This document shows positions 1 to 64,000 of a DNA stretch of 64,000 nucleotides, in pieces (the stretch's first letter is position 1; each line of letters opens with the position of its first letter). Location: positions 19,158,001 to 19,222,000 of the forward strand of contig CM069165.1 in the NCBI GenBank assembly GCA_035221665.1, in the 5' to 3' direction. This DNA comes from Okamejei kenojei (Eukaryota). The notes beneath the pieces were generated by a model. That model worked only from the letters and a program-made list of their open reading frames with translations. It was not told the DNA's origin and ran no database searches. A program made the position numbers and the translations under genes.

Positions 1-1287
1 AGGCCTCGGAGGTTTGTTAGAGAACATTAGTGAACAAACAATGTTCCTTGGGCATCATGAAGCCCAAGGAACACACCAGACAGGTCAGGGATAAAGTTGT
101 GGAGATGTTTAAAGCAGGGTTAGGTTATAAAAAAATATCCCAAGCTTTGAACATCTCACGGAGCACTGTTCAATCCATCATCCGAAAATGGAAAGAGTAT
201 GGCACAACTGCAAACCTACCAAGATGGCCGTCCACCTAAACTGACAGGCCGGGCAAGGAGAGCATTGATCAGAGAAGCAGCCAAGAGGCCCATGGTAACT
301 CTGGAGGAGCTGCAGAGATCCACAGCTCAGATGGGAGAATCTGTCCACAGGACAACTATTTGTCATGCACACCACAAATCGGCCTTTATGGAAGAGTGGC
401 AAGAAGAAAGCCATTGTTGAAACAAAGCCATAAGAAGTCTCATTTGCAGTTTGCCAAAAGCCAAGTGGGGGACACAGCAAACATGTGGAGGAAGGTGCTC
501 TGGTCTGATGAGACCAAAATTGAAGTTTTTGACCTAAATGCAAAACGCTATGTGTGGCAGAAAACTAACACTGCACATCACCCTGAACACACCATCCCTA
601 CTGTGTAACATGGTGGTGGCAGCATCATGCTGTGGGGATGCTTTTCTTCAGCAGGGACAGGGAAGCTGGTCAGAGTTCTTGGGAAGATGGATGGAGCCAA
701 ATACTGGGCAATCTTGGAAGAAAACCTGTTAGAGTCTGCAAAAGACTTGAGACTGGGGCGGAGGTTCACCTTCCAGCAGGACAACGACCCTAAACATACA
801 GCCAGAGCTACAATGGAATGGTTTAGATCAAAGCATATTCATGTGTTAGAATGGTCCAGTCAAAGTCCAGACCGAAATCCAATTGAGAATCTCTGGCAAG
901 ACTTGAAAATTGCTGTTCACAGACGCTCTCCATCCAATCTGACTGAGCTTGAGCTATTTTGCAAAGAAGAATGGGCAAAAATGTCAGTCTCTAGATGTGC
1001 AAAGCTGGTAGAGACATACCTCAAAAGACTTGCAGCTGTAATTGCATCGAAAGGTGGTTCTACAAAGTATTGACTCAGGGGGCTGAATACTTTTGCACGC
1101 CACACTTTTCAGTTTTTTATTTGTAATAAAATTTGGAAACAATGTATAATTTTCCTTCCACTTCCCAATTATGCACCACTTTGTGTTGGTATATCACATA
1201 AAATCCCAATAAAATACATTTACGTTTGTGGTTGTAACGTGACAAAATTTGGAAAAGTTCAAGTATGAATACTTTTGCAAGCCACTG
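1..1287 (+). mobile_element. Tc1/mariner DD34E transposon, Passport-like, IR/DR type; left end outside window
   Basis: Transposase remnant 57-1073. Right end ...GCCACTG is followed by TA (1288-1289). Direct repeats GAATACTTTTGCA(C/A)GCCAC at 1085-1103 and 1267-1285 give the IR/DR structure. Confidence 0.93.
57..1073 (+). pseudogene. Tc1-family transposase pseudogene (2 frameshifts, 1 nonsense codon)
   Basis: MKPKEHTRQVRDKVV... paired-like HTH, GRPP, WSDE, QQDND...PIENLW with 34 residues between D and E. Frameshifts near 224 and 380; TAA at 606-608. Confidence 0.93.
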
Positions 1288-1841
1288 TATCTGCCAATTT
1301 CCTGGTGCCCATGTGAAAATGCTCTATACTCTGATAATTGTTGCACCTTGTATGTGTATGCTGAGACCAGATGACACTCGTAATGCAAGGACTTCTGCTC
1401 TACCCATATGTAATCTACTGGCTTCTCAACAGGCCCATGCAGTACCCACATGGCCAGGCATTAACCCGTTCACTTCCAATATTTTTTTCCATGTATACTC
1501 TGTCCTGAGTATACTCTGGGGTGGCACTGAACAGATTAAAAGAGAGGACACAGTGCCATTACTATCTCTGCAGAAGTGATCCCTGATTACACTGGAATCG
1601 TATCTCATGCAAAATTGTCTTATGTTCCTCTCCATTGCTGGTGGATGTTTTTCTACATCCTATTAATGTATCTCATTTGTAGTTTAGGGTGAGAGTTGAC
1701 TTACCAATCTTTCAAATGCATCAAGCCCCACTATCAGCAACAATATCAACTACCTCTTGCACCTTATAAATTCTCTAAGGACTACAAGGATAATGAATGT
1801 CAACCATGATTGGGGCATCACAGGTATCACCAGTCTGGTGG

Positions 1842-1984
1842 TGGGGGTGGAAGATTGCAACCTTCACGTGGTCCGCCCTGTTTCGACTAATGCAATCAAC
1901 TAGACGTGCACAAACGGAAGATCAAATAGAACAAGTTGTCCTACAACTTTAGGCTGTGCACACCACACGAAAGAAGAAGAAGAG
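1842..1984 (+). mobile_element. ~140-bp SINE-like non-autonomous retroposon, copy 1 (5' HDV-like ribozyme, (AAG)n tail)
   Basis: TSD GTCTGGTGG at 1833-1841 and 1985-1993; six substitutions relative to the copy at 63221. Confidence 0.88.
1844..1897 (+). ncRNA. Predicted minimal HDV-like self-cleaving ribozyme
   Basis: P1 GGGGTGG/CCGCCCT with G1-U wobble; P2 GATTGCA/TGCAATC; P3 ACC/GGT; L3 TTCACGT; P1.1 G1880; mini-P4 T-TTCG-A; J4/2 CTAA (putative catalytic C1887). Confidence 0.8.
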
Positions 1985-2039
1985 GTCTGGTGGCTCATGA
2001 AATAGGGAGCTAAATAACTAATGAAACTGTAAAGATGAT

Positions 2040-2410
2040 TGAAGAGAAATAGATCAAGGAGTGAATGATGAGAAGAAAGAGAGGGAACAAAGACTGAAAA
2101 AAATGATAGTGGGGAGCTAGGAATGATAAAGAGTGGGTTGAGGAGAGAAAGAAAAAAGAGAGAAAGAGTTGAGTGAGGGGCTGAATAAAAATAAGTATGA
2201 TGGAGAGTGTATTGAGAAACGAGGAAGGAAGGGAAGGTGTGGGGAGGAGAAACAGTGAAGTGAAGGAGAGAATGAGATATAGTGCAGTGCACTGTGGAAA
2301 GAAGAGGGCAAGGAAAGAGGTTGGTATGGAGAGAGGGAGTGACTGAGAAAAAGGGAGTGGGAGAAAGAAAGAGAAAGCAAAAGAAAGGGGCTGTGAAAGC
2401 GAGAGAATGG
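2040..2410. repeat. Low-complexity purine-rich (GA) tract
   Basis: Strongly A/G-biased on the + strand; produces spurious F/S/L-rich minus-strand ORFs. Confidence 0.85.
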
Positions 2411-2467
2411 CATGAGTGTGGCTGATTGTCTGGGTTCTTTCTTTTCAATTTTAGAGTTAGATATAGG

Positions 2468-2610
2468 TCTTTGGGCTAACAGAATCAAGGGATATGAGGA
2501 GAAAGCAGGAAAGGGGTACTAATTTTGGATGATCAGCCATGATCATATTGAATGGCGATGCTGTCTCGAAGGGCTGAATGGCCTACTCCTGCACCTATTT
2601 TCTATGTTTC
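2468..2610 (+). mobile_element. CR1/HER1-like LINE 3' tail fragment
   Basis: gatcagccatgatcatattgaatggcg...ctcctgcacctattttctatg, shared with 8150-8305 and 37110-37262. Confidence 0.8.
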
Positions 2611-3346
2611 CGGTAATGAAATCAACAGCAGCTTCAAAAACGGCTGTACATCTCGCCAATGAGGGAAGATCTCGCACTCTAGCCAAGGATATGTCACCTA
2701 TCCATGTTCACCAGGGATGCTGCCTGACGCACTGAGTTACTCTTACTGTCTTCATCGGTGCCAAAAAGTAGTAACACTTGTATACTGCCTGGATGAGGGC
2801 TGCTACATGATTTTACCAGGGTGTATGCAAAACAAACCATTTCACTGTATCTAGGTACATGTGACAATAAAGTGTAATTGAATGTCCATAAGCAATGAAT
2901 TATCACTTCCCCCGAATCTGATGTTTTTTCCATTAGCAATTACCAACATCAAAACAAATAAAGGGTTCAAGCTAAGATATTGGCTTGTAGCTTGTAGCTG
3001 CAAAATTGGACGTGTGCAGGGTTACTGCATAATTGGCATTACTATATGCTGCCACTTATTAGTTGTGCCATGTATACACAAGATGAGTAGTCACTATATC
3101 ATAATGTAAAATATATTAATTTTACTATAAATTCCATCTTTATTCCCATCTATTGTAATCTCTCACATGGAGTGAGGACCTAAAAGTCACAATACATACC
3201 AATAAATTTGCACATAAAATCACTTGGAATTAAAATATTGGTCATAAGCATTTACATTCAACTATTTACTATTCTGTACGGTGTCCATGGAGATTTGCAA
3301 TTGAAATTGCCTTAGCCCAATGGCCCACATTTCGTCTCACTCTTAC

Positions 3347-3382
3347 CCTTTCTCCTTTTGGTCCTGCTGGCCCTGGTACACC
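3347..3382 (-). CDS. COL13A1: Exon, 36 nt, [12 protein letters not shown]
   Basis: ctatgtag|GGT...AGG|gtaaga. Confidence 0.92.
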
Positions 3383-6300
3383 CTACATAGAAATGAATAT
3401 ATTTATATATTTCAGAACAACACACTACCCTCACCTGTTTTCTAGCAACAATGCCATTAACAAAAAAAGGCCTAGCATTAGAGCGGAAGGGTGCTTAGAT
3501 CATTCAGAGAATAGTACATGAACCAGTTGCTCAGCCTAAAGAAAATTAAGTAGCGCACTCTTAGTAGGACTGGGGCATTTCTGTTGGTGAAATAAGCCTG
3601 GGTTTTACCAATGAAATGAATAGGATCTGTACAACATATAAGACGAGACAGTGCCTTGAATTAATCTGCCCACCAATTTTATGTGTCTCCTCTTGTGTCT
3701 CCTATGTGGCCAAACAGGTGAATTTAGAAATGGTGAACCAAGAGACTTAACACTGCCATTTTGTGGCTCTGTTCTAAATCAAGATTGCAATACAATCAAG
3801 TACATTGCTTCTTAGGACGGGAAAGTGAATGAACAGAAAATATAGACATTAGGATAAAATCCTTGGCAGTTTACATGGAATTTATGTAGATGCAAATTTA
3901 TTCTGCATGGCCCTCCTTTGTTTATCCATGGCAAAAGAAGATTGTTGCCCTGTGTATTGCTGATAACTATATCTGAAGAGCCTTTGGCTCATTGATGCAA
4001 TAAAAAGCTCTGTAATTTTGACAGTACAGGCATACAGGGACATTAATGAGCTTACTCAAATTCTTTTCAGCTCTTTAAAATTACCATCTGAAATAAAAAT
4101 CGAAATGTTGGATATATCGAACAGGTCAGGCAGTAACTGAGGAAAGAGTTCCAATGTGGAAGATTAACTCCGTTTCTCTTTCCACTGATGCTGCCTGATC
4201 TACGATGTGTTTCCAGGATTTTTCCCTTTAGATTTTAGATCTTCGTTATCTGCAATTTTTGTTGGTTTTTATTTACTATGGGATTAACATCTTTCTTACT
4301 GTATTGATTAATGTGAGAAAATGCACATAAACTACGGTTGAGGACATGTCACCATGTCACACAGTGTAGGCTGGAAATCTGTCTTGGTCATTAAATATAA
4401 ATGGCAATATAAATGCATTATAAATTACTTCAGTAATTTTTCTACTGACATTCTGAGGCAAAGTACAAACACCTGCTACTTTATATACAGATTAGCATAC
4501 ATGACAAATAAATATATCTACTCCAGTGGGATAATGGACAGATATTCTTTTGTTGAGGTGTCCAAGGGATGAGGGAGGCGTTTGATTCCAATGCAAAATT
4601 ACTAGAGAACATCTAGCACTGGAGCAACCTACATATTGAACTGATAACATGACAAAAAGGGATCAAGTTCCGTCTCCACTATGGAAGGTTGAAAAAAATC
4701 TGCTGCATTTAGCTCGGGTCCAATTCTGCAGTAACAGACTAATAAAAATTGGCATATTCTCCTACGTTTTGCAGTGATCCCTGCAGGAATAGGCTGGTGA
4801 TGTTCCTTTAAAAATCTCAAGAGCCTTCAAGAAGGCAGGGGAACATAAGACATAACAGCCTCATACGACACTGATTTATTTTCCAATATTAAAAAACACT
4901 GAATAGTTATGTTTAAGTCTGTGCATTTCTTATTTTATTGAAAAACTAAATGATATCCTTTGTTAAAATCTAGTAATCCTGAGCAAGGGAAGAACCAGCT
5001 AAACAGAGAGCATGTATCTGTATTTTCAAATGGGCTGCCAAAGAAATGAATCTAATTGAAATCCAGTCTCACTAATGATCCTCTAGATTCAAGCATGGTT
5101 ATGAAGGTACCTATACCCTGCAGAAGGGTTCGGCACTTCCAGGTAGTAGAGCTAGCACTTCATGGGCATGGTTCCTGCTGGTGGAGACATGATTTTGACG
5201 AGTTCCACTGAGTAATGAATGTATGAATAGAAAAGTGTATTTTGTGGTGAATATCAGTATTCCAGAGCATTGTGGATCATCAACAAGAACAGTCCTGTTC
5301 TTGAGGGAAATACTAGTCAATGGGAGGTGGGATGTCTCTTGCTCTTAATTTTCGGAACTCTGTACCTAGTGGTTGGATCAAGTAGTTGGTCACATCCAAG
5401 GGATTTTCTCAAGTTAGTCTTCACTTTTTGCAAAGTTTACCTTCGAGGAGCCATTCTCTCTTAGGGTGTTCCGAACAATTTGTCTAAACCAATTAACATC
5501 TATGCTAACTGGCTTAAATAGATGGGATGTTAACAATACATTAACTTATCAAAGACAGTACAGGCCACAGTGTGGAATCACAGTAGCTCAGCCTAGCAAT
5601 GGGGTTTCATAAATTACACTAGAGAATATAGATTGGGAGTGAAATTTGGTATGGGTAATGATACAAAATAAGTAATGAGTACTTTGCCCTCTCTAGTCGA
5701 CCAAAATTGAATTTTATCGCAATGATTTAGGAATCTGTGCAACAAATATTGCAACATGGATATGTGTTACACTTTAATTTGAAGTGTCCACTTTGGTCAG
5801 TATAACTCAGTAAGATCATAGGCCCAAGTTACACATCAACATTAAATGCTTCAGACCTACTAAGACAGGATAGATTTACTGTAAACCACAGATTGCTTTG
5901 GTATATGTAAATGTAGGACAATTGCTAGAACCAAAATTGTATCCCGCTCAACAAAACTAATTTTGTTTAAAAGCACTTTAATTCTTTATTTCCTACATTT
6001 GTTAATTTACCAGAATTACAACACTGTGGCTGCAATATTTGTAGCCATTGAACAGTCACGTTACTTAAGCATTTCCTAATCCGAATGGGAAACCAAAATG
6101 TTAATTAAGCATTCGCATGCACTGGCATATATCTCATGCTTCATTGACAATGGTAATGATTCACTGTACAGGCATGGATTCCAGCGATGTTAAATTCACA
6201 ATGCAGTCCAACAGCAGTGTAGCAGGCACGAACTATCTAGGAGAATGGACATACAGAACTCACCAGTGGTCCAGGCTGTCCATCTAAGCCAGAAGCACCC

Positions 6301-6871: not shown

Positions 6872-9800
6872 GCTTTCAATACCTAGTATATTCTCATGTT
6901 TCTGTGATTTTGCATTTGTTTTTTCATCTGCCTAATCTTTAAATTCTGTTGATCATCCAGAACTAAGGAAGGGCTTCCCTATAGTTATTGATGTTATAAA
7001 TAGATTGTGTAGAATGGCTCTGTTTTCTCTGGCAGGTTTGTGATCTCACTCAGAGGGCTTAACAAATTGGATACTGTGTTTTTCTCTTGGATGGTGAATC
7101 TCAAAACGCTGTTCCCAGGACAAGGGTTCTGCCTCTTAATTGGGATATGGAGATGTCACTTTACTCAGGCTTTGAGTGCTCAATACTTTCAAGAGCCAGT
7201 TCAATAGCTTTTTGAACAAGAATGGAATTGGCAAATATGGTGACATTTGACTGGAATGTACAGTTATGGTAGAAGAGACTGTAACTTCAAATCAGTTCTG
7301 AGAAGCCTTGATGAATGGGCTAATTCTGTTCATTTATGAGTATTACCCATCAGGACACCATGAGTGATTAAAGATTGTTATTACATTTTGAAAACTTTCA
7401 TTTAAAAAAAATATATATAATGATAATCAAGATAAGTATTATAATACTAAATGTTCCAGGATTTCATGTCCCGTGCCTTGATTTGTCCTTGCGAATAATT
7501 TTGGAATGCAAAAATACTGAATTGTGTTTTGATGAAATAAATTTCAGCTGCAGGGCTGAAGAGAAGATGGATGTTGCAGGTCTAAAAGCTATGACTTTGC
7601 TCTTGATAATCGTGACCCTTCTCAGTATCAAACTTGGCCCATGTGCCATGTTTGTGTTGATTTATGCTGCGGATGCTGATTCAGAAAGATTAGGCCTCTG
7701 CTTAATTTTCAGCCCAGAATTTTTCTCAAAAAGGTCAGAAATAAATCTCTGGATGTGAGACATAGCTGGTGCTTACTTTCGTTTCGTTTTAATTTAGTTT
7801 AGAGATGCAGCGCGGAAACAGGCCCTTAGGCCCACCTGGTCTGCGCTGATTAGCAATCCCCGCACATTAACACTATCCTACACACTAGGGACAATTTTTA
7901 CATTTACCAAGCCAATTCTTATAGAAACATATAAAATTATAAAATGACTGGACAAGCTAGATGCAGGAAAAATGTTCCCAATGTTGGGTGAGTCCAGAAC
8001 CAGGGGCCATAGTCTTAGAATAAAGGGGAGGTCATTTAAGACTGAGGTGAGAAAAAACTTTTTTACCCAGAGAGTTGTGAATTTATGGAATTCCCTGCCA
8101 CAGAGGGCAGTGGAGGGCAAATCACTGGATGGATTTAAGAGTGAGTTGGATAGAGCTCTAGGGGCTAGTGGTGTCAAGGGATATGGGGAGAAGGCAGGCA
8201 CGAGTTATTGATAGGGGACGATCAGCCATGATCATATTGAATGGCGGTGCTGGCTCGAAGGGCCGAATGGCCTCCTCCTGCACCTATTTTCCATGTCTAT
8301 GTTTCTAATTTACCTACATACCTGAACATCTTTGGAGTGTGGGAGGAAACCAAAGATCTCGGAGCAAACCCACGTAGGTCACAGGAAGAACTTACACACT
8401 TCATACAGATACTATAGCACACATAGTTGGGATCAAACCCGGGTCTCCGGCGCTGCAAGCACTATGGCAGCAACTCTACCGCTGCGCCACCATGCCCCCC
8501 CCCCCCCCCTTCCTCATTCTGCGGCTGTTGCATTGGTTCTCACTTGGTTTTGTTGTCCTTATTTTCACCCCCCCAACATCACTGCCCTTCTCCTCCCCAA
8601 AATTCCCTGGAACTATTTATTTCTTGGAAAGTTAGCCATGCCAATAGCCAACCTATTTTACGTTACGTTTTTCAGTTTTATGGAAAGTGAGGGTTGCAAG
8701 CACTAAAACAATTCATGGCATGTCAAGGAGTGATAGGTTTCTGCAGAATGGAAAGGACCAAGTTGATTTCTCCCCTTCAGAGATTGAATTCAACATGAAG
8801 TTGTAAATTGGGTGGGCAGATGTTCACCTCTGGACCTGCTCACCTGACTGTAGAGGTAAATTTTAAAAAAATCCCTAAACGGATGTGTCTTTTAGTTTTA
8901 AAACAGTAGTCTAACGTGCGGTAACACACAGGTTATGGTTAGATGGTTTCTATAAAATTAGCTGTCTAAAGAATGAAGGTGATTTGTGGACCATGTTAAT
9001 TTCACTCTCATGCCCAGAAATCCCACATTGACAGTATCAGCTAGAAGTACAGATTGATGGCAGTAACAGAATATAGAACTTACAGGCAGTCCCAGGGGAC
9101 CTCGATCACCTCTATCACCTTTGAAACCTTCTGACCCAGGCTCGCCCTACATCAATAAGAAAATTGTGGTGTAATATGTTCACAATGTTATATCTGTATC
9201 ATACATAAGCTAATCCATCCAATTTACACACATAAAGTCACTGCTAAACATTCTAAGGTATAAAAATCTTGGAGGAAACTGTGAAGCCCAAATGCTAATA
9301 TTGCAAAACAATACCAGCTAAAATGTAGAATCTGGACATTTGGCCAGATATCTCTGTTGGCCATAAAATACTGGAGATGTCTTTTAGGTCAAGCAGAAAT
9401 TTTCGAGAGAGACAGTTCATCTTGCAGCTGCAGGATCTTTCCTCAGAATTCTCTCTCCACAGATGCCGCCTGAGCTGCTAATTTTTTTTTTCACATTTCC
9501 AATTTTTTATATAGTTACCATGATGCAATAAACTACAGATCCAATATGTGAGAAATAAGGCATGTTGAAGATTGTTAGCTTGTGTTAGCTTTCATAACGC
9601 AAATTAACCCCTAGCGTTTGAGAACATTATACCATACGTAATCAAAAATATGATGTGTCGTTTCAATTTTCATTTTGTTAATGATATTTAACGTTGATCT
9701 TTCAGAATCAAAAACTTGAAAATCTATGTTAAAATACATAATGGAAGTGAATTTAAAAAAAAACAGAGTTAATTTGGTCAGGACAATGATAGTTTGTGGA

Positions 9801-12800
9801 TTTTAGATTAAAAAATGTACCATCCAGGAGACAACTAGCATTGCCTCAGGCTGAACAACTCATTCCATGAAGTATTTCCCATTCAGACCTTTTCAAAACA
9901 TGTATTGCACATCAAAGATCAAATGTGTTTTCTATTTTTATCAATCAACAAATTTAAACTATTGTATAGAGAGGGAAACTGTTACACTAAAAGTAAGCAG
10001 CAGCAAGTCTCTTTTACCATACGAAGCTCATGATACACTATTCTAAATATATACAATACACAATTGTAAAAGTAGTTCAAGAATAATTAAAATTACCTTT
10101 GTCCCTGAAAAGCCATGCGGACCCTGGGCAGAACAGATTAGAAACCCGGTTTTAAATAAAGAACATTTCATCCAGATTACAATATAACAAGCTCATTTAC
10201 AATTACAACATTTCCAAATTTATCAAAATGACTGGAAGGATAATGGATTTTAGCTACACAGTTAGGTTGTAGGAGTTGGAACAGGGGTTGTTCTCCTTAG
10301 GTGGTAGGTTTGATATGAGATGAAGACAAGCTTGGATAAGCTAGACTAAGAAATATTGCTCCCATTTGCGGACGGCACAAGGACTAGAGTTTACGATTTA
10401 ATGATTTGGGGATGAAATATGCGGGGAATTTGAGGAACTACATTTTTAGGCAGCTGGTGGCAAAAATCTTGGAACCTGCCTATTAGGGTAGTGGAAGTTG
10501 AGGCATGTGAGATTTTCAAAAGGAAATTAGGTTTACACTTGAGGGAAGTAAACTTGGAGGATACGGGGACAGGGCAGGGCAATAGGACTGACTGGATTGA
10601 TCAACTGGGGGTTAGCATTGACACAATGGGCTGAATGGCTTCCTTTGTGTTGTAGTGACAGTGGACTCTCTGACAAATGAACATATTGCTCTTTTCAAGT
10701 CCTGATGCACATAAAGCAACCTGATTATTCTTAAGCATAAAGCACGCCAGATATGCTATCAACGTATGGTCTCGATGTGTATGATATACAAGTTTTTTAT
10801 TCAAAGATAGCTGTTTCAAATATAATTAATTGCCCTGGAATTATGAGATATGAAAAGACTTTATAAAAATCAAGGGTCTTTCATTAGGCATAAGGAATTA
10901 CAGTGCTATTAAAGGATATAGTTTAATTTCAAATTTACGCCTTGTTAATGGATTTACAATCACCCTCTGCTGATGCAATACCCTTAAAATTAAAATTAAG
11001 CATAACTCTGCGAGCAAACGTATTGAGTATGAGAGGTCATGCTAGCCTCCTCCTCGTCTTTCATCCCAAGTTGAGAAGAATGGAGGATTACCTTTGGACC
11101 AGGGGGGCCCTCAGGCCCAGGTATTCCTGGCGGCCCAATAACCTGCAAAAGGAAGAAACATCTTTCAGTATGTACACTAGGCAAACTTTGCAAAAGGTTC
11201 ATAAAACAGTGGACTGTGCTGTGCAGGTTCTGATTGTGACTTGTAAAATGGATAGTATTTTGCCGATTGAGTGCAAATCCTTTTACATGATGCCACTTAA
11301 CAGACAAAACGATTTCGGGGGATTTAGGCCAAATAAGGGCAAATGGGACAAGCTCTTGGTCAGCATGGATGAGTTGGACCGAAGGGCTGGTTTCCATGTT
11401 GTATGACATTAAATGCAATCATTCGCATATTGGTCATCACTACCCAGAGCTATCTTATGTCTAATTCTTAGATTTAATTGCTTCCAAAATCTGATTTTGC
11501 AGGATGAAAAATGTTTTATGTTTTTTTTTACAATTTGCCTCAAGTTTCATCTGAAATTGCCCTTTCCGATGATCTGGATTGCATTGCCTGAAGCTTCTAT
11601 GGTCATTTTCAGAAAAGGGTAAATTTGTGAAGAAGATACATTTTCAGGGCTAGCGACTAATAGTAAAGATCTTTCTAAGAGGTGGATTTGCAAATTGGGT
11701 GAATAGCCTCCTTTTGGATGCCCTCTGGTGCAAACTCTAGGCTACTTTGCCAGGAAACGCACAGCTAGCTGTGGGAGTCTATGGCTTATGATGGGCATTG
11801 ATGGTTAACCTATTTCTGGAGATGCGGTTGAAAAGATTAATGAAGGAAAAACTGCTGATCTATCAAGTGATCATTTTTTTCATGTGCATCTAACCTTGTT
11901 ATCGATTGTGGGAAATTTGTTGGGTTCCGTGATTTTGGTGAGTGCGAAAAAAATAAGGCACTAAAATAGGTTGTGGTAGTATATTTGGTAGTCAATGGCC
12001 ATATAAATTGTATTTAATCATTCATCATCCAGGATCATGGTCAGAACGCAGCTGATAAAATGAATATCTTCTCCTTGGCTTTGGTGGCTCAACCCACAGA
12101 TGGCTAGCAAGAGGGCTGATTTTGCATTAACCTAGATGAAGGAGAAATATACCAACCACTTCCTGTGCAATGGGAAGCCCCTTATTCAAAAATACTTCCT
12201 TTTCACTGGCACAGTCCTTCAATAGAAAATGGAGATGGTGACTGAATACAAATTGTGAATGAAGCTGCGAAATAAGGTGAAGGATTTAAGTGGATAATTT
12301 AATTTATGGCACAGTGGCGCAGCTGGCAGAGTTGCTGCTTCACAGCTCCAGAGACCCAGGTTCGATCCTGCCCTCAGCTGCTGCCTGTGTGGTGTTTGCA
12401 CGTTCTCCCTGTGACTACGTAGGTTTCCTCCGGGTGTTACGGTTGCCTCCCACATCCCAAAGACGTGCGGGTTTGTAGGTCAATTGGTCTCTGTAAATTG
12501 CCCCCAATGTGTAGGGAGTGGATTAAAAAAATGGGATAACATTGAACTCATGTGAACGTGTGATCAATGGTCAGCCTGGACTCGGTGGAGAGAAGCGTAT
12601 GTTTCCATCTCTAAAAACTAAACAAAAACTAGTAAAGGATTCTAAATAAGGCACTGGGATGAAGAGTGGGAATTAAATAGGGCTAGATGTTAAATGGAAG
12701 TGGTTAAATGTAATGGGAACTTAAACGGGATGGAGAGGGAATTAATGGGTAGCCATTTCCTTGGCACCAATATGGTGCTACTCCTCAAGACCACTTTGAC

Positions 12801-17800: not shown

Positions 17801-20800
17801 TACAGTGGAATTATCTCCAGTGCCCTGGCCAATGTTTATCCCTCACTCAACACCCTGAAGCAGATACATGAGTGCGATTACCCACTTGTTGTGGACCTCA
17901 CATGGCTCACATGCCCTGTACCCTTCATTACATTGATGACCATGAAAGAACTTCATTAACTTCAATGAAATTTTGGGTATCCTGAGGTCAGGAAAGGTGC
18001 TGTAGGAGTGCAAGTTCTTTCTCTCTAAAATGGACTCAAGTCACAACAGACTTCATTCACAGTTTTAAGCTTTGATTATAACGATTCGCTATCATTATAG
18101 GGATTAATGAAGAAATAAATGGATACCCACCTTCTGACCTGGAGGGCCTACAGGTCCAGGCAGGCCGGAATCACCCTTAATTCCACCAGCGGCAGATCCT
18201 GGTTCTCCTCCTTCCCCCTGTTTAAGGAGACCAGATTGTCCCATTAAACATAGATGTAGATTAGTGATCATCTATTATTTATCCACAATTGACACTCTTC
18301 TTGTTGGACTCAAATAACAGTGCCACAGATAAAAACTAAAAGGCGCACACCTTCGTGAATGGACTCAAGAAACATCAGCGAGTCTCGGATTTTTAAGCGC
18401 AAGATGCTGAAGTCCAAGTCTCACTGAGTGATAAATGGTTGCTCCAACACTGGATTTCATGGAGAGACCAATGAAAGAGCCCAAGATAGACACAAAATGC
18501 AGGAGTAACAGTGAGTCAGGCAGCATCTCTGGGGAAAAGGGATAGGTAATGTTTCAGAGGAAGAAAGACCTCAGTCTTCCAAAGGATCAGAGACCTCCAT
18601 TGATTTCAGATTTCAGATACTCTTTCAGGCTTGTAGAATGCACGATTTGCTTTTCATTGAAAAGAGAGGGTGAAAGAGAGAGCAAGGGAAGTCTGTTGGC
18701 ATCCAGAACTTCCTAATTTTGTGGTTGTGTCCCAACTCAGGGGTCAACATGATATTAACATTTTAAATTAAATTCAAAATATGACTAAAATTAAACGATA
18801 CTGCATTCTTTTTTTATCTTAATATTTATACTTATATGCTTTTAAACCAGTGAGATGGGTGGAAGCAATGAGAAAGCATAGGGCTGATGTGGCTTTGAAT
18901 TCTGCTGGCTGAGGTCTAGTCACACTGTTCCCCTGTGCCCCCATCCACAGAACAAATGTAACGACAAGGTTTAGTTTAGTTAGATACAGCGCGGAAACAG
19001 CCTGCTGTGTTTAAGAAGGAACTGCAGATGCTGGAAAATCGAAGGTACACAAAAATGCTGGAGAAACTCAGCCTCTATGGAGCGAAGGAAATAGGCAACG
19101 TTTCAGGCCGAAACCCTTCTTCAGACAGGGAGAACTGTCTTCTGCGGAAACAGGCTCTTTGGCTTACCGAGTCTGCACCGACCAGCGATCCCTGCACATT
19201 AGCACTATCCTACACATACTAGGGACAATTTACACATACACCAAGCCAATTAATCTACAAACCTGTACGTCTTTGGAGTGTGGGAGGAAACCGAAGATCT
19301 CGGAGAGAACCCACAGGGGTCACGGGGAGAACGTACAAACTCCGTACAGACAGCACCCGTAGTCAGGAAGGAGCCTGGGTCTCTGCCGATGTAAGGCAGC
19401 AACTCTACAGCTGTACCACCATACCACAGATTGGCAGGTCAGTGGGTTCCACGTTGCTGCAGATATCCCGCGAGGGTTAGATGAGTACGCTGGTGGATCA
19501 TTTGGTGATGGCGTGGAATAGGGTGAAGGATGTAAAATCTGTCACCATGTTTCCTGCAGTGTTGCTGAAGGACAGTATGTGGACAACAGACCAGTTAGGT
19601 CAAAGATAGATCCCTGTGGATCACCACAGTTTGAGATGCGCAGATAATTTGTTTATAAAATGAAGAAATACTGTAGATATTCACATTTTCTTCCAGTCAG
19701 ACAGGGGTATGCTAATGAACAGTTCATATTGCCACTCATTTAAAATAAACAAGCCCTTAATTGATGCCAGTTATCAGCATGAGGTATCCTATATAAAGTA
19801 GCTTTTGAAAGAGCAGACTTACTTTCTGCCCTGGTGCACCTCCTATCCCAGGTATGCCATTTTCACCCTGTACAATATAAACACCCAGGTTAGAAATCAA
19901 GCAACATTGTTGTTTATTGCAAGCTAGCAATATCCCAATTCTGATAAGAGGGTTTCAAATTCTGAGTGGAAAAAAATACATTTTAAAATTAGAAACCAGC
20001 AGAGTATCTTCCGTCAAAATCTAGAAAATCAATTGGAAGTGAAACAAGAATGAACTGTGATATTTCTTATCATTTTGCTGAGATTTCTCTTACTTAAAAT
20101 CCATAACTCTCCTCTGCTGTTGAGCTGCAATGCTGGCCTGTAACCTGAATCTAGCTTCTATATATCACCACATTGTAAATTACTATCCATCAAAGATAAG
20201 CTATTTGACAGCTATGAGACACGGAGGCTTTGCACAACTACAAAGCAATATTTTAAAGAAAATTCACTGAACCAAAATGATGAAAGACACACATGCTAGA
20301 AAAATGGTAGAACCTGGCTTAGACATCTCCACTATCAATCACTGGGGTCAACATTCTCTTGAACCTACTTTACTCCCCAATCTATGCTCCATTCACTCGG
20401 CATATTCAGGCCACAGTCTCAAAGCACCCCTGTTCTGAAATATTAATGTGCTGTGACGTAATGTGTTCACAACAGCACCACAGCTCTACAGGTTAGCACC
20501 GCTTTGTTCTGGTTGTGGTCGGATGCCCATGAACTACTTGATTAAACCTTTCTCAGTAACTTTCAGAAGTTAGTGAATGATTGTACACAGTACTTGTTAA
20601 CTTATGCTCCATCATCACAACTTCCTGAATTATTATCTAACCGTTTACAAACATATTAATCACCTGCAAAACTTAACAACACTCAGTTTTTAAAAAAAAT
20701 ACTCTTAACAACTAAAACTAGATTTTTTCTGAATGCTCCATACTTGTATCTGATTAAGGTTTGGGATGGTGCGAATTTTCATTACCATTGAATTATTGCC

Positions 20801-23800
20801 ACAACTTCTTGTGATGTGTGTGTGGGAGAGGAGTGAAATTTAAAATGATTTGCTCAGCCCTTGAATCCAATTAGCTGGGTTGCCATTGTTTGTCCTAACT
20901 TTGGTGGTAATCACTCATGGGGAAATTAATCAAATGTTTAAACAGTTGATTTTTATTAGTTTGACATAAAAATCAAGTTATTTCTTGTTGAAATTCACCA
21001 AATTCCCACTGGAGTGTATTCATCGCTGGGGAGATGGGAATTGGTAAGAGAATGAATACAGGAGAGGATCACCTTGGAGCATTTTGAGAGATCAGGTATG
21101 AGAATGCAAATAGCCAGTGCCTGCACCTCAATCTGATCTTCTTAAATAATGTTAAAAGTCTGTAAATATGGCAGAAGCCAATGGAAACTCTTCTTAAGAT
21201 CTCACAATGAATTTGTAAGTAACAAGGCAAGCAACAGCAAATCCAATCACATCAGACCAAACATAATAATCTTGATTAAAATCTCACTGAAGTCCAGAAC
21301 TACTTCAGACAGGGTTACACTGAGGATCATATACTGAATGGATGGGGGGCATGCACCAGATACTATCAGATGTTACCATCACATGCAGCTGTGCACCAAA
21401 CAATGCACAGGGACTTTCAATATAAAGTGCCAAACTTTAGCTGTGATTTCCCACACTACCCATGCATTGTAACTTCCAAAACTAACAAAAAGTCCATTGT
21501 CTGAATCAAACTTAAAGAATCATCACACACATCTCCCCAAGTCCAGAGTTTGTGCTTAACTCACAATTTACATTCAAAGTGGAAATATATATTACATTAT
21601 TTATTCTAAATTTTACAAAGCAAACTGCATCTAAAGTATCCATACTGGAACTGCTTACATTGAACCCCCAGTATAGAAACAGGACTTTCAGCCACACAGA
21701 AACCTGTTGGGTTGACATATTTATGTATTTTTCAGGATCTAAACATTGCTGACAAGGCTGGTATTTATTGCCATCACTAATTGCCTGTGTAAAGTGAATG
21801 GTGAATCAGCTCTCGAACTGGTGCAGTCTGTCTTTCCAAAAGGACCGCTCCAGCTCAAGGCGGTAGTTCACCTTTATTGATGGGTAAGGAGCTACTGAGT
21901 GGACAATGGCATTGACAGTTATGCAATCATCAGCAATCATCCCTACTTCTGATCATATAATGGAAAGAAGTTATTAATGAAGCACTTCAGGATGGCCGGG
22001 CCCAGGCCACTCCCTAAGGAACTCAAATCAAGTGATCGTAGTCTGCAGAAACCTTGGATCATTGAATCCACTGAACATATCCTTTTATTTTATGGGAATT
22101 TCTACGGGAGTTAAAATGGTTAGTAATCGAGAGATCCAGCAGGCCTTCACGGACTGTGCTGAAGTGTTCAGCGAGACGATCGTCTAGTCTATGTTTTGTG
22201 TTGCCGATTTAAAGAAAGCCACATCAGAAACTCTGGATGCAATAGATGAGACTAAAGGAGGTATACATGAATCTCTGTCTCACCTGGAAGGACTGTTGGG
22301 GTCCCTGGATGGATGTGAGGGTGAAGGTATAGAGACTGTATGTTACATCTCCTGCTGTTGCAGGAGAAAATACCTGGGGAGGGGGTGATTTGGGTGGGAA
22401 AGGATGAGTGAACCAATGACAGCTAAGGGGAGCCATGTTTACTAAAGAAAGAGGATATCTTGGATGTCCTAGAATGGAAAGCATCATGTTGGGAGCAGAC
22501 GATGAAGTGATGAAGAAATTGATAGCATCTTTGCAAGAGGGAGGGTCAGAGAAGGTATAGTCCTGATAACTGTGGGAGTTGGTGGAATTTGTAGTAGATG
22601 CAAGTAGATAGTTTGTCCCCTGTTTTGGAGACAGGGAGATCAAGAAAGAGGAGAGAGGTGTCAACCACAGTTCAAGAGGCAAAATCTTCTGCCTTGGTTT
22701 AATTCTCTTTACTGGTTTTGTTAGCAGTAGTTTGCAAGGCAAGCTCATGCATCAATATATCAGGCACACCCACACTATAGATCCTACCCTGAAACCTCTC
22801 TTTCCGGGAAGGCCACGTGGACCAGCTTCTCCTGGCTCCCCCTAAGCATAAAATATGAAGATAGGAGATCAATACACAGGACCTGAAAGGAAAGGTGAAA
22901 CAGGGGGGAACATCGAGAACAGACGAGGAGACTTCAAGAACATATGAGAAAACACCACAAACAGACAAGGAAACATCAAGGCACTTTATTCAATGTGATG
23001 AGGCCACATTGTGATACATGGGATGAGACATGTATCTATCTCATTTTGCATAGGAAGGAACTGGTTTAAACCGAAGATAGGCACAAAATGCTGGAGTAAC
23101 TCAGCGGGACAGGCAGCATCTCTGGAGAAACATTTTGGGTTGTTTCAGTCTGAAGATGGGTCTCGACCTGGAAAGTCACCCATTCCTTCTCTCCGGAGAT
23201 GCTGTCTGTCCCGCTGAGTTACTCCAGCATTTTGTTTCTATCTCGTTATGCAATTCTATGATCGTACAAATCTCATGCAATGAAGTTATTACTTCTGACA
23301 GTTGTTTGATTATTTAATTATCGCCTGTTTTAAATATTTCATGACTTATCAGAGATATTGCAAAAAATCTCATACAGGCTAATGCATAAAACAGCACTGT
23401 CCATAAAACGTATTAAATTATGAATGCTAAACAGCAAGACAAGCTTTGGAATTAAAATATCATCAGCTATACAAATACTTCTCCAATGATGTGGAGTAGT
23501 GCAGCTTGATTGCTTTTCTTCAAGAGCTTGCAGTCTCACTTGTCTGTCGCTAAAGCTTTGTTTTGTCGCTCAGGCCAACAGTTTAACCTCTATGGTCAAA
23601 TATTGTGTGACTCACACTGACCTCCATTCAGCTAAAATGAGAGTGGTTCACTGCTGGTCAAGGAAAGAATTAAATGGATAGTGCTCATTCAATAAAGGGC
23701 AGCATAGAAAACAGAATGTACAAAGTAGAGGGATTTGCACAGGGGGAATTGAAGATTAAAATAGAATGGGAGGAAGTGAATAATAAGGGGAGAATGGTAG

Positions 23801-29800: not shown

Positions 29801-32800
29801 CAACTCTACCACTGTGCCACCGTGCCACATAGGTTGCTGCTTATGCTTATTTACAGTATATTGAGCTTCTTCACTAGATGGATGGTCAAATGTACATGAA
29901 GGAGGATGGCAGTCCATATGCTAGCCCTATCTGCCCAAGTCCAGAGGGCATCTGAGATGCACCAGTATCTTTTCTCCAGCACGTCACAGCTCCACTGCTG
30001 TGGTAAATGATGAGTCCAGGAGCGGAGCTCAAGTTTGTCTGTGACTTCAGCCTTTCACCACATCCAGGCTCACGTTCAAGAGGAGCTGAGCCACAAGCAG
30101 TTGATAGCTGGCCATGCTGCAGATTAAACAGTATGATTCGGCCTGGCGACCATTTTAGCCTTTGTGCTCCTGACTGGAAATTCAGTGATGCCTATAGCCT
30201 AAACCATCATTGTTGCTGCATCAAATTTAAGTAAGGGTGAGCTTTCATTTGTGCCCATGTTATTGCAGATTGTGCAAAAGACCTTGGGTGACCTAGTTTA
30301 ATTCAGTAAGCCCTAAACAGACAGGGCCACTGCTGATTTAGAACCATTCTGGGAGAATGGAGTCAACCAAGGCAAAAAAAAAGTGACTACATTCGTTTTA
30401 ATTTACTGCTAATCCCAATATAATAACTAACTTTCCTCCCTTTTAAAATACTCATAAAATTGACATGCTCATTATGGTAGTCTTGGTTTATACAGGGGAG
30501 CCAACAGGGATGTGGAGAAACATAACTCTGTTTGACTGACTCGATTAACATTTTGATCAGATAACAGAGAACGCTGGTGAAGGGAATGCTGTAGATTTTT
30601 TTCTAGCTTTTCAGAAACCATTTGAAAAAAATGCAAAATGTTGGTCACAAAATTGAGACCCTTGGAATTAACTATTCAGCCAGAGTATTTAAAGAAATGG
30701 AGAGCAGGGGTATACAGCTCTTTATTCAGACTTATACGATGCTCTTTACAGAAGGTAATAGAGCATTCACTGACTTGTATATATATATTAATGACGTAGC
30801 AAGATGTGCAATGCAAAAGTTCTAAATTTGCAGATGACAAGAAGTGTCATGCGTAATGGGAAGGGTAGTAATACATTGTAAGAGAATAAAAGGCTGAAGG
30901 AATAGTCAGACACGTGGCAGCTGAACTGCAACACAGCGAAGCATGAAGTAATACATGCAGACTGAAAAAGCAAGAGACAAGATGGAGTAAATGGGACAGT
31001 TCAAAAGATGTGCGGTAACAGAGAGTGGATGCGGCCATATTGAAATGGTGGTTAGTAAAGTACATGGGCTCCCCTGATTCATAAGTTGAGATATAGATAA
31101 CAAAGCAAGAAGATAATGTTGATGATAGACACAAAATGCTCGAGTAACTCAATGGGTCAGACAGCATCTCTGGAGAAAAGGAATAGATGACGTTTTGGGT
31201 CGAGACCCTTCTTCACACTTTTGTTGAATCTGGTTTAGTGACAACTGGGGTATAGTGTTTAAGAAAGAACTGCAGATGCCGGAAAAATTGAAGGTAGGCA
31301 AAAATGCTGGAGAAACTCAGCGAGTGAGGCAGCATCTATGGAGCGAAGGAATAGGTGACGTTTCGGGTCGAGACCCTTCTTCGGACTGGGATATAGTGTT
31401 CAGTTCTGGTCACCTCATTTTAAAAAGAATATAAAAGCTTTAGAGAGAGTGTAGGAAAGATTTATTGGAATGGCTGCAGGGCTGAGTATCTCAGTTGCAA
31501 GTTTAGACTACAGAAGATGGAATGAGGAAGGCCGATAGATATTTCAAAGAGCTGCGGCTGTTCACGAAGGGTGTCGATGGAGTATTGAGAGCAAAGTTGT
31601 TCCTATTCTCAGATGGTTCAAGGATCGGAACCACAGGCTTAGAGTTTTGGGACACAAACAGAAGGAAGGCAGGAGGAAAAGTCTTTATTACGTGGAGAGC
31701 AGCGAAGATCTCATCATTGATGAGCATGGTGGAAATGGAGTCAATCCAAGGAAGAATAATTTCCAGGATTATGGGGAAAAGGTGGTGGACTGACTGGCAG
31801 GGTTGCTCCAAGAGGGCCTGGCAGAGACTCGCTGGATTGAACAGCATCCTCTGTGCCACAACATTACAAAATCAATGCGTCCTTCCAACACAATTCAAAT
31901 TGACAGTTTTGCTCTTTATCTGAAGATGATCAGACCCATCCGTAAGTATGATGAATGTAGCAGGGAGTGGTTGAGTAATTACTGCTTTCTTTTTTCCCTC
32001 ACTTCCCTACCAGTAACACTAGGAAGCCTGATTCTTTATCATTCCTCGATAACAATCAGCACGGGAGCACCTCAAGGCTGCGTGCTCACCCCCCTGCTGT
32101 ACTCACTCTATACTCATGACTGTGTAGCTGGACATAGTGCGAACTCCATCATCAAGTTCGCCGACACCACTGTTGTGGGACGAATCACTGACGGTGACGA
32201 GTCAGAGTATAGAAGTGAGATCGACCGATTGACCAAATGGTGCCAGCACAATCACCTGGCTCTCAACACCAGCAAAACCAAGGAACTGATTGTGGACATT
32301 CAAAGGGGTAGGATAGGGACCCACAATCCCGTTTATATCAACGGGCCGATGATGGAAAGGGTCAAGAACTTCAAATTCTCGGGCGTGCATATTTCTGAAG
32401 ATCTTTCCTGGTCCCAGCACACTGATGCAATTATAAAGAAAGCACATCAGCGCCTCTACTTCCTGAGAAGATTACGGAGAGACGGTATGTCAAAGAGGAC
32501 TCTCTCGAACTTCTACAGGTGCACAGTAGAGAACTTGCTGACCGGTTGCATCATGGCTTGGTACGGCAACTTGAGCGTCCAGGAGCGGAAAAGACTACAA
32601 AAAGTAGTAAACACTGCCCAGTCCATCATCGGCTCTGACCTTCCTTCCATCGAGGGGATCTACAACAGTCGCTGCCTCAAAAAGGCTGGCAGCATCATCA
32701 AGGACCCACACCCTGGCCACACACTCATCTCCCTGCTACCTTCGGGTAGAAGGTACAGGAGCCTGAGAACTGCAATGACCCGGTTCAGGAATAGCTACTT

Positions 32801-35800: not shown

Positions 35801-38800
35801 CTGTACCGCATCCTGCGCAAAGCCGCCGGCACGGCCACGCACCTTCTGTGAACAAGTTTAAGAGAGAACTGCAGATGCTGGAAAAATTCGAATGTAGACA
35901 AAAATGCTGGAGAAACTCAGCGGGTGAGACACACAAGGATTGCATGAGGCTGCCTCACCCGCTGAGTTTCTCTAGCATCTTTGTCTACCTTCTGTGAACA
36001 CGTGATTTGATGCCGGCCATCCGGGGCGGGATGGGGGCGGGATCCATGTGTACACGTGATAGATATGGCCTGCCATCCACTCACAGCATGCGTCCCGACC
36101 CCTATGCAGAACAAGGTTGCCGACTCCCGAGGTAAAGGAATCCGAGGAAGGATATTTTCACCTGAGGGTGTTTGGAATCTGGAATGCACAGCCTGAGATG
36201 AGACCTTCACATCATTTAAGAAGTATCTGGATGGACACAAGATTCAGAAAGGCTCGTAATGCCATGGACCTGGTAATGCTGGTAAATGGAATTCGTAGGG
36301 ATGGGCACTTGATACTTTGCATGCTCATGTGGGCTGAATGGACGTTCTGTGTTAGATGGCCACTAAACTACATTCAGGTTGAGAAACAACGAGTGATCAG
36401 TATCAATCATTTCCATCAACTTACTGATTCATAAAACTTGCTAAATCTAAATAAGTAGTCATGTCTCAGGTGACCGCATGAAGTTCAGGAATTATTTCAA
36501 CACATTTTGGCTAGACACCAGAATATAATAACACATTTACATCCGATTCCCTCTACCTCATTATGGACTTGGGACTTCAAAAAATGAACTGTTGCACTAC
36601 AATACTGAGAACTATATTTTTCACTCTATTTCTTTTTTTCTCTCTACCTATTGTACTTGAGTTCAGCTTGATTATATCCATCTATGAAAAGCATCTAGGG
36701 GGCGCTGCACTGACAGCAGCCTCTGCCTGCAGCCCGTTTGTTTTTACATCTTTTTTTTATTTTTAGTCCGTTAAAAGTCTGTCTTGGGGGGGAAACTTTA
36801 ACTTTTATATGTGGGGGGAGGGGGGCAGGGTAAGGGGAAAACAAACTCCCAGTCGCTTCCTGGCGGGGACACGACTATTTCTCCGAGTTGCGTCACTGGA
36901 TGTTTTCAAGGCAGAGTGAAGGGACTGTCCCACGTGGCCGTCATTCGCGCGCCATTTACGCGACCTGCTAGCGCGTGGGTAGAGCGTGGGTAGTGCGGGC
37001 CGGGCGCATGGAGTGGCGTGGAGGAGTGTGGACTTTGTCCTGCACTAAATCTTCGTGTGCCACCGGCCTGTCGCGTAACTGACGGCCAAAGTGGGGCACT
37101 CCCAGGAGATTTAGCTCTTAGGGCTAAAGGTTCTAGGGATATGGGGAAAAAGCAGGAATGGGGTACTGATTTTAGATGATCAGCCGTGAACATATTGAAT
37201 GGCGGTGCTGGTTCAAAGGGCCGAATGGCCTATTCCTGCACCTATTTTTCTATGTTTCTATGCAAAACCAACCTTTTCACTGTACCTTGGTACACCTGAC
37301 AATAATAAACCTAAACCTAACCATAGCATCTTCAATTAATTTAAGGTCTTTCTCTGAACTTACAAATGCTTCACAGTCACAGGTTCATGTATGGTAAAAG
37401 AACAATGGCAGCCAATTTACATTACAAACTCACTCAAGCACCTAAACTAATTGAAGTGACAATTACACTTCACTGACAGATTGAAGGGGAAATGTTAGTC
37501 AGGAAATTGGCAAACCATTTCTTTTTCTTATAATGCCATCTATACTTATCTGAGAGGAGATGTGCATTGTTTAACATTTCATTTGTGGGACAGCACCTCC
37601 CCAGTGCAGCATTCCCTCTGTTCTGCAGCGATGGATTAGCCTGGATTATGCATCAAATCCCTGGAAATGGACTTGAACTGCAACCTGACGCAGAAACAGT
37701 ATTCCACTCACTCTGACATGACCGGCATCTGGAGCCATCAACAGAAGCACGCTGTTCTCTTCTAATATCAAAGTAACTCCATTGAACCCCTCATGTCAAA
37801 GCCAAGGAATCGTAATCCTTTCACTTCTTCTTTGATAAATGGTCAGGGGTGTGGATGACTAACTTCACATGAGCACATGGAAATGGAAGCAGTAGTAGAT
37901 CCCCTCAAACCTGCCTGCCATTCAATACGATCATTGCTGATCTATGCTAGCCTCAACCCCTCCACGATGCTACCACTCACAGCTATCTGTTACTCAATCT
38001 TCCATATATTTATTTACTGGTCTCTACCAGGTTTGGGGGCAAAGATTCTTCTGACAGAAGAATTTTCTACACACCCAAGTTTTAAATGATCAGCTCCTAT
38101 CTTGTATATACATCCCCTTGCCTATGACTTTCCCTCAAGTCCAAACATCTCAGCATCTGCCCGATCATGCCTGCTTAGAATCTTGCCCTTTTGAATAGGG
38201 TCACCACTCATTCTTCTAGACTCCAAGGAATACAGACCCAAGGTTCGACTACACTGGATTCTGAGATGGCTGATAGTCAGGTACAAGAACCACCGACTCT
38301 CCCACAGGTAGTGTAGGTGGGATGCAATCAGGGTACCATGCATGGGTTTGACCAGCGTGCCAAAGGCTAAGGTTTCCATTTTAAAGCAACATCAAGTGTG
38401 GGTTTATATAAAGCTACACGCGACAGAAATTGCTCTTTTAAACCTGCACAGTAGGTACACAGAATTGTATGCGTCTTATTTAAAGCGATGACTTAATTCT
38501 GTTAATATTAAATAATAAAGAATAGCGATTAAAACATTTTTATGCAAAGGTTTCAGTTTTCAAAATAAAGCAATGGTCCTGTTCCAATGTGTCCAATCGG
38601 TTGTATAACTGAATGTATCAACTTTTGAACCATTGTCCCATTAAACTATCCTGTTACAAAACATTTGTTTCCTATTGACTGGAAGATATGACGGAAGTGG
38701 CAGATTTTCAGACTTCCTTTTTCAAAATGAGCGTGAGTATCTAATTAAGTCACGGACTGCCAGTGACCCTGCGATGCTGGTCATGAAGCTTCGCAATTAC

Positions 38801-63188: not shown

Positions 63189-63220
63189 CCGGGATGTACT
63201 GGAAGAATAGCAAAAATGAC

Positions 63221-63274
63221 GGGGTGGAAGATTGCAACCCTCACGTGGTCCGTCCTGTTTCGACTAATGCAATC
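63221..63274 (+). ncRNA. Predicted minimal HDV-like self-cleaving ribozyme (copy 2)
   Basis: P1 GGGGTGG/CCGTCCT; P2 GATTGCA/TGCAATC; P3 ACC/GGT; L3 CTCACGT; J4/2 CTAA (C63264); G+1 directly abuts the TSD. Confidence 0.78.
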
Positions 63275-63358
63275 AACTCGACGTGCACACACAGAAGATC
63301 AAATAGAACAAGTTGTCCTACAACTTTAGGCTGTGCACGCCACACGAAAGAATAGAAA
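63221..63358 (+). mobile_element. ~140-bp SINE-like non-autonomous retroposon, copy 2
   Basis: TSD CAAAAATGAC at 63211-63220 and 63359-63368; same 5' end as copy 1. Confidence 0.88.
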
Positions 63359-64000
63359 CAAAAATGACCAGCAGTCCTTTGAGGGGATAATGCAATGGTA
63401 CAAAGCCACACTTAATGATCACTGCTTATGGCTCAGTATATCAGCACTGTCATAGGTAGTCTTGAACCTGAGCACAAGTTTCTGCAAGGAATAGTTTTCA
63501 AAGAGTCATCTTATTTTTTGTAAATGTCTGGCTCTACAAAGCAGAAGGCTTGCAAAGGGTACATAAATGAAAATCAAACTTTTGGGCACTTCAAAAATTG
63601 AACAAAAATTTGTGACTTTAAAGACCATATTCAGCAATTTCTAGAAACTAAGAACTGCCGCTGTCTGTTTATTAAAAAAAGACACAAAGTACTGGAGAAA
63701 CTCAGTCGGCCTGGCAGCATTTCTGGAGAACCTGGATAGGTGACCCGAAACATCACCCATCGATTCTACCCACCGAATTACTCCAGCACTTTGTGTCTTT
63801 TTTTTAATGAGTGAATTGTAACTTGCTTATTTACAACACTGCTGTAATCTGTGCAATTTGTAGTGCAGACACCAGCTATTGCAAGCACAGGATGTCAGCA
63901 GATAAGAGTACATCTAGTTTGGAATGAATAGCTGTGACTGAGAGGCATAAACTGGAACTTTAAAATATATGCCCAACAGCTTGACTGGCTCTCTGGTTAA

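Follow-up and report, generated by a model that had tools for sequence, protein, structure and literature searches.

Non-autonomous LINEs that are bipartite and carry a ribozyme head form an established class (PMC5786205, PMC4035085), and cleavage at +1 has been demonstrated for NARTc and SIDER heads (PMC4035085). Further background is given in PMC7761336, PMC3391268, PMC5753468, PMC3747384, PMC10919898 and PMC4908430. Vingi LINEs are described as compact, with a single ORF, APE and RT domains and no RNase H (PMC13708176). Vingi-1 serves as a gene-writing tool; in the parts of the review consulted here, ribozymes are mentioned only for R2.

Minimal HDV-like ribozymes are defined by the absence of P4. 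Cleavage has been shown for four of them, about 99% are found in phages, and the sections of the source used here report none from human, mouse or protist genomes (PMC10879173). No CPEB3 ribozyme has been detected outside mammals, according to the relevant part of PMC8233481.

Here, we analysed a stretch of 64,000 nucleotides from the skate Okamejei kenojei (hereafter the window), which contains a short element beginning at position 1844. We propose, with a probability of roughly 0.8, that this element is a full-length member of an abundant family of non-autonomous retroposons derived from a Vingi-type LINE, and that its head is a predicted P4-less HDV-like ribozyme that would free the RNA at G1844. 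The two-part anatomy, the partner LINE, the number of copies, their shared 5' end at G1 and the TSDs are read directly from the genome.

Results

The element joins the two ends of a single LINE

The element lies on the + strand between the two copies of a 9-bp TSD (1833..1841, identical to 1985..1993), as a preliminary description of this DNA had reported. Two additional bases (1842..1843), presumably a junction addition, separate the 5' TSD copy from G1844, and other copies of the family have 0-3 such bases. The LINE-derived 5' part (1844..1915) corresponds to nt 1-72 of the partner LINE and is identical to copy L223 at 67/72 positions. It is followed by a 20-nt linker at the deletion junction (1916..1935), part of which repeats LINE nt 73-80 and may have originated there; in an older copy, L325, the linker is about 15 nt. 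The LINE-derived 3' end (1936..1969) consists of the last five codons, the stop codon of the LINE ORF (1950-1952) and a short 3' UTR, and an (AAG)n tail (1970..1984) completes the element. Against LINE copy L241, 1936-1981 matches the last 46 nt of the LINE at 41/46 positions. The tail had been given as CCACACG(AAG)n; the (AAG)n repeat, in which sister LINE families also end, is present, but one additional A precedes it.

The partner LINE resides in the same genome, is 3.05 kb long and has a single ORF with APE and RT domains and without RNase H. In L222 (3,044 bp) both termini are in line and an 8-bp TSD flanks the copy; both ends are also present in L224, L225, L226 and L237, and the APE frame begins about 130 nt after the shared head in further copies. 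A LINE sharing both termini, for which a search had been suggested, is thus present. The short element has no ORF, both of its ends match this one LINE, and the head is 93% identical to the LINE 5' end, with an inner P1 pair that is U-A in the LINE and U.G in the short element. The initial label of a ribozyme-headed SINE is apt for the ribozyme-shaped head at the exact 5' end, but the element is a bipartite, internally deleted LINE and the head is the LINE's own 5' end.

The partner was reached by an endonuclease search that led to L136, from the L136 protein to several related families, and from these to L190, which carries the short-element ends. The top 30 loci matching PF14529 and 19/20 further picks were other LINE types, and only L136 was Vingi-like; L136 was rejected as the partner and belongs instead to the sister family V1. 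A guessed pattern for the partner 3' end had 0 genome matches. Several individual loci are of separate interest. L190 and L227 (= L193) are partner copies with an inverted 5' head, as from twin priming, and L209 (1240-2124) is an 885-bp partner copy with both ends and two internal deletions, an intermediate deletion form. A short copy with its own TSD lies inside the ORF start of the parent LINE (L221 1269-1406, = L237 499-636). Among other LINEs, L134 (- strand, 1162-4989) has an (AAG)n tail and, after a gag-like ORF, an apparently intact 1,276-aa APE-RT-RNase H ORF, and L122 and L123 have 1,000-aa stop-free CR1-like ORFs.

All of the partner loci examined (22/22) are broken, the longest stop-free piece being 414 aa, and partner copies are 82-91% identical to one another, as judged from 36 long pairwise alignments of 7 copies. 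The 39 short copies most similar to the 1844 copy, selected on that basis, are 96-99% like it. A driver of the youngest short copies was not found among the partner copies seen, all of which are broken and older-looking. It is possible, though less likely than not, that the short element came from the partner LINE and that its youngest copies were mobilised by another Vingi-type family via the shared tail. The older look of the partner copies relative to the youngest short copies is consistent with such a driver, and the sister families V1-V3 have similar CATACG-like and (AAG)n ends; however, copies of the other Vingi-type families are broken as well, and the partner searches, which scored only 150 out of some 500 candidates, may have missed a young partner copy. 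This alternative concerns the driver only and is compatible with our reading of the element as a ribozyme-headed Vingi derivative.

A second copy in the window (63221..63358, + strand) is 95% identical to the first and has a 10-bp TSD (63211-63220 and 63359-63368). Collagen-type exons on the - strand flank both copies on either side, and both copies are therefore intronic and antisense; in this orientation the 1844 copy would not cut the collagen pre-mRNA. The collagen gene, with many short Gly-X-Y exons (window 3347-60490, - strand), spans the entire window and was also seen in L367 and L368. Other abundant repeats, in both orientations and some of them forming long hairpins, lie for example at 7778-7885, 19120-19408, 23061-23280, 31109-31396 and 35883-35989.

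The head has the anatomy of a P4-less HDV-like ribozyme

The first 54 nt of the element (1844..1897, + strand) can be arranged as a nested double pseudoknot, with P1, P2, P3 and P1.1 in the right order and G at +1. P1 (GGGGTGG, 1844-1850; CCGCCCT, 1873-1879) includes the G+1.U wobble and one inner U.G, and J1/2 (1851-1852) leads into P2 (GATTGCA, 1853-1859; TGCAATC, 1891-1897), which has 7 Watson-Crick pairs. P3 (ACC, 1860-1862; GGT, 1870-1872) encloses L3 (TTCACGT, 1863-1869). The P1.1 base G1880 is followed by the linker 1881-1886 and by J4/2 (CTAA, 1887-1890). This anatomy had been proposed in the preliminary description, and it is right at every coordinate. Cleavage is predicted to occur 5' of G1844, with C1887 as the catalytic base.

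Core bases of the HDV fold are also present. In the HDV/CPEB3 numbering of PMC4836649, U20.G25 corresponds to T1863/G1868, the C22-G pair of P1.1 to C1865-G1880, and the first base of J4/2 to C1887. U1881 allows two readings: it may close a U-UUCG-A loop, or it may form a U.U second P1.1 pair as in CPEB3. The earlier view that P4 is reduced to a UUCG tetraloop and P1.1 to a single G is therefore one of two possibilities. CPEB3 functions although its P1.1 comprises just a G-C and a U-U (PMC4836649), so a single P1.1 pair would not be fatal. The second copy carries a U20 to C change, from which its ribozyme is likely weaker or dead.

A strict HDV descriptor, a search that had been recommended for this locus, found 2 sites on the + strand of the 64-kb window, namely the copies at 1844 and 63221, and 0 on the - strand. 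The Rfam model RF02682 aligned end to end with 1844-1897, weakly (16 bits, E 0.73) and below its cut-off of 44 bits; the P4-less head is 20 nt shorter than this model. No other Rfam family matched the head, and an Rfam scan of the whole window gave no HDV family at E <= 1. The folding energy of the head is ordinary (z -0.04) by a minimum-energy method whose model does not include pseudoknots, and for this copy, pairing between the 5' flank and P1/L3 is predicted. In the 3' half (1898-1969), a possible long stem (1906-1912/1955-1961) and a hairpin at the deletion junction were noted, with an energy that is not significant (z -1.19).

The family is large and shares its 5' end

In the 2.76-Gb genome, a 33-nt head pattern had 6,864 exact matches, the first 19 nt 11,295 and the 3' 18-mer 11,592, against 0 for reversed control patterns. 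The family numbers at least 11,600 copies and probably about 21,000, the latter being a rough extrapolation from one region in which the exact 5' 19-mer is present in only 16/30 copies picked by their tails. All 30 loci chosen by the 3' 18-mer (the first matches on contig 1) proved to be short elements.

Of these tail-picked copies, 28/30 start within 2 nt of G1, and the other two are truncated at nt 17 and 43; the 5' ends are thus unstaggered, unlike those of truncated LINE tails, as the preliminary description required. Moreover, a TSD of 8-14 bp ends <=3 nt from G1 in 34/43 copies, and exactly at G1 in 13; the 43 are the distinct loci with an exact 12-nt head and a readable tail among 90 loci examined. 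Additional 5' bases in 10 copies are mixed, with a lone G in 2, and a regular additional 5' G, as capped RNA might leave, is absent from the 43 copies. The short element is its own dispersal unit, with a variable-length TSD and a repeat tail. A 140-nt element is seldom truncated in any case, and uniform ends alone therefore do not separate a ribozyme from an internal promoter.

ARAGORN found 0 tRNA genes in the window, and no Pol III SINE head from tRNA, 5S, 7SL or snRNA was found by Rfam scans and ARAGORN, in agreement with the earlier statement that the element lacks a tRNA head; the head is the LINE 5' end. The size, tail and TSD of the element are SINE-like, and the Rfam score below cut-off and the ordinary folding energy might suggest an ordinary Pol III SINE, its head taken from a small RNA, or else a fold that arose by chance. 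We regard this explanation as extremely improbable: no tRNA was found, the fold recurs, differently spelled, where four other families begin, and the 93% identity of the head to the LINE 5' end refutes it, unless the LINE took its head from a SINE.

At least two subfamilies can be distinguished, which within the head are set apart by J1/2 and by the free J4/2 base. The changes from the LINE to the subfamilies affect J1/2, the free J4/2 base (CUAA/CGAA) and one U-A pair, which becomes U.G. Of 60 rows, six were left out, one being the 1844 copy and five being copies that are truncated or split; among the remaining 54, only 15 retain the complete set of 17 pairs together with the checked core bases. 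Covariation, a test of which had been proposed, is almost absent within these copies, with decay only; compensatory changes appear across LINE families. T1872C, which breaks a P3 pair, is common to 7/54 copies. Its carriers are L316, L318, L319, L336, L338, L340 and L048, six of which come from the first 5 Mb of contig 1; a subfamily, local spread or an assembly error may lie behind this recurrence.

These observations bear on the idea that the head is a relic, the ribozyme having been active in the parent LINE lineage, the P4-less form having little or no activity, and the 5' end being set by an internal promoter that occupies these bases. Precedents can be cited for it, since Pr77 of L1Tc is both promoter and ribozyme, and certain trypanosome SIDER heads failed to cleave even though they conformed to the folding rules (PMC4035085). 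The T1872C copies and a linker shorter than in the closest theta-ribozyme rows (PMC10879173) point the same way. However, the P4-less form is already present in the LINE and was retained through both subfamilies with changes at tolerant sites, a second short family (L390-L393) has the same 7-nt linker, and the regular additional 5' G is missing. We consider a relic head improbable, though far less so than a Pol III SINE, and favour a ribozyme that is predicted to function in the P4-less form.

Part of the stretch occurs in sequencing runs under seven organism labels, and contigs from three of them depart from the element at 1844. The element is covered by contigs of four presumed-RNA runs, two of them marked as probably DNA; these contigs show neither ends nor strand. 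Following a loose-end motif from the run contigs had a single outcome, the diverged short copy L121.

The partner belongs to a clade of probable Vingi LINEs

P0001, an intact relative of 1,019 aa that is 75% identical to the partner, contains APE and RT domains and a C-terminal CCHC motif and lacks RNase H, which the same analysis detected in the control element L134. The RT tree unites the partner with four sister families and relatives from invertebrates in a single clade (99/99), which excludes the RNase H-bearing, CR1-like and Rex-like rows; the reference labels (CR1-like, Rex-like etc.) are provisional, and named Vingi or Ingi proteins lie outside the scope of this tree. A 117-aa RTE-like piece falls outside the partner clade (SH-aLRT 84, long branch). 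An Ingi/Vingi or RTE clade had been suggested for the partner; the architecture fits the published description of Vingi, and the partner does not group with RTE, represented in the tree by this piece. The partner is likely, with high confidence, a Vingi element.

The four sister families V1-V4 (loci L144-L153, L154-L160, L170/L191 and L172-L177) are Vingi-type, have their own HDV-like heads with P4, and are broken in all copies seen. In V1-V4 and the partner, 5'-truncated copies aside, identity between copies starts at or 1-2 bases from G1 of P1, and the tails of V1-V3 consist of a CATACG-like motif and (AAG)n. The distance from P1 to the catalytic C is 7 nt in the 1844 head and the partner and 16-45 nt in the sister heads.

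The pairs of these heads change from family to family. Among 8 lineages, from which the kin L333, L223 and L254 were left out and V2 was missed by the parse, each of P1 positions 4-7, and likewise each of the six counted positions of P2, is occupied by 3-5 kinds of pair. Strands taken from different lineages pair at 61% on average (56 combinations); the 100% self-pairing within lineages holds by construction, and the independent fact is the position at the family boundary. The single P1.1 pair is U-A in V2 and C-G in the others. Comparison of sequences thus shows that four other LINE families begin with the same HDV fold, including compensatory pairs.

Relatives from metagenomes extend this picture. 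Upstream of the ORF, the strict descriptor matched 4/21 loci, compared with 0/21 reverse strands and 1/420 shuffles, the 21 being those of 74 metagenome loci in which the DNA before the ORF was long enough. When 14 of the 21 were parsed more loosely, 2 were added, and 15/21 were matched by neither descriptor.

Some Vingi-type heads resemble the CPEB3 ribozyme

The 1844 head shares with CPEB3 its L3, the G-U after P1 and a P1.1 of one G-C and U-U (RF00622; PMC4836649, PMC8233481), but its other stems differ and it has no P4. RF00622 did not match the 1844 head. In this genome, it had 42 matches among 59 candidates scored, 30 of them above the cut-off (35), with a best score of 66.8 bits; in 14 control genomes, it had 0 matches. 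In L374, a CPEB3-like head continues into APE and RT pieces that are 34-39% identical to P0001, and the same APE start follows the CPEB3-like heads of L369 and L372 (heads at about 1511-1575). An APE-type ORF was not seen after the CPEB3-like head in the other 22 of 25 loci examined.

Furthermore, L390-L393 (about 1512-1700) represent a second short family of about 165-200 nt, with a CPEB3-like P3/L3, a 7-nt P4-less linker and an (AAG)n tail. All four copies seen have U instead of G before the P1 G run.

The heads of this further Vingi-type family are so CPEB3-like that the mammalian CPEB3 ribozyme likely began as a Vingi-type transposon end. Sea-urchin and lancelet ribozymes resembling these Vingi heads were reportedly assayed by Webb in 2009, so some of the connection between Vingi and CPEB3 may already be contained in published work. 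The 5' ends of Vingi-2_Gav, Vingi-4_Crp, Vingi-2_SPur and Vingi-1_BF are printed in the supplement of PMC5786205. In the tRNA-headed alligator element SINE2-1_AMi, the Vingi-derived middle keeps, by eye, the CPEB3 P4 stem, with changed L3 bases (PMC5786205). Vingi heads would supply an outgroup for the CPEB3 ribozyme.

Discussion

Taken together, our data suggest a life cycle for the short element, whose steps are modelled on L1Tc/NARTc and R2 (PMC4035085, PMC6765202). Transcription would start in host DNA and read through into the element, or would start at a promoter that, as in L1Tc, lies in these same bases. The transcript would cleave itself 5' of G1 using C1887, and its 3' end and (AAG)n tail would recruit the APE-RT protein of the LINE in trans. 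Target-primed reverse transcription would then insert a copy with an 8-14-bp TSD, and most copies would decay afterwards.

In the parts of the literature that our search covered, Repbase and Dfam lying outside its scope, neither this short family nor a ribozyme in Vingi nor a derivation of CPEB3 from Vingi is described; likewise, the short family is unnamed among the bipartite LINEs in the sections consulted of PMC5786205 and PMC3414825. As far as searched, the P4-less head, with almost a theta-ribozyme core, is new in an animal retroelement. We lean modestly towards the joint proposal that an active P4-less HDV ribozyme is present at some 20,000 copies in a vertebrate, that HDV heads are general in Vingi, that at least two losses of P4 occurred in this genome, with the loop solution of phage theta ribozymes, and that CPEB3 is a domesticated Vingi 5' end.

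If this is true, minimal HDV ribozymes move from gut phages into an animal genome at very high copy number, and Vingi joins the ribozyme-bearing LINE clades. The thousands of natural variants, together with the orientation of intronic copies, would provide a test of host-transcript cutting. The family would also indicate that a Vingi protein may make do, in trans, with as little as about 120 nt of RNA.

The closest counterparts of the head itself are the minimal HDV-like and theta ribozymes of PMC10879173, which likewise have no P4, a 7-bp P1 and P2 and a 2-nt J1/2. Rows of the theta-ribozyme table, e.g. no. 1782, have the same P3, L3, UUUCGA loop and CUAA as the 1844 head, and 7-nt linkers like the short loop that replaces P4 here also occur in that table; its rows are motif matches, not assays. 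Compared with the matching rows, the linker of the 1844 head lacks 1 nt, and its P1.1 consists of one C-G pair instead of two. In the table as a whole, the P1 and P2 of the 1844 head occur in separate rows and were not found together in one. Theta ribozymes adjoin the 3' end of a tRNA in phage, whereas the skate head lies in an animal genome, in a window without tRNA.

As a retroposon, the element most resembles NARTc, RIME and SIDER of the L1Tc/ingi group (PMC4035085, PMC6765202), which are likewise short, internally deleted derivatives of an APE-type LINE. There, as here, an HDV-like ribozyme at +1 is common to parent and derivative, and insertion is dispersed, with a TSD of about 12 bp. The skate family differs in that its parent lacks RNase H, its head is 54 nt without P4 instead of 77 nt with P4, and it occupies an animal genome at about 21,000 copies; cleavage is shown in the trypanosome elements and predicted from sequence in the skate. 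The bipartite LINEs of RTE, Ingi, Vingi and R2, including the Vingi-1_EE derivatives and R2 SIDEs (PMC5786205; PMC3414825), combine the 5' and 3' ends of the parent, have no ORF and keep the extreme 5' end, as the skate element does.
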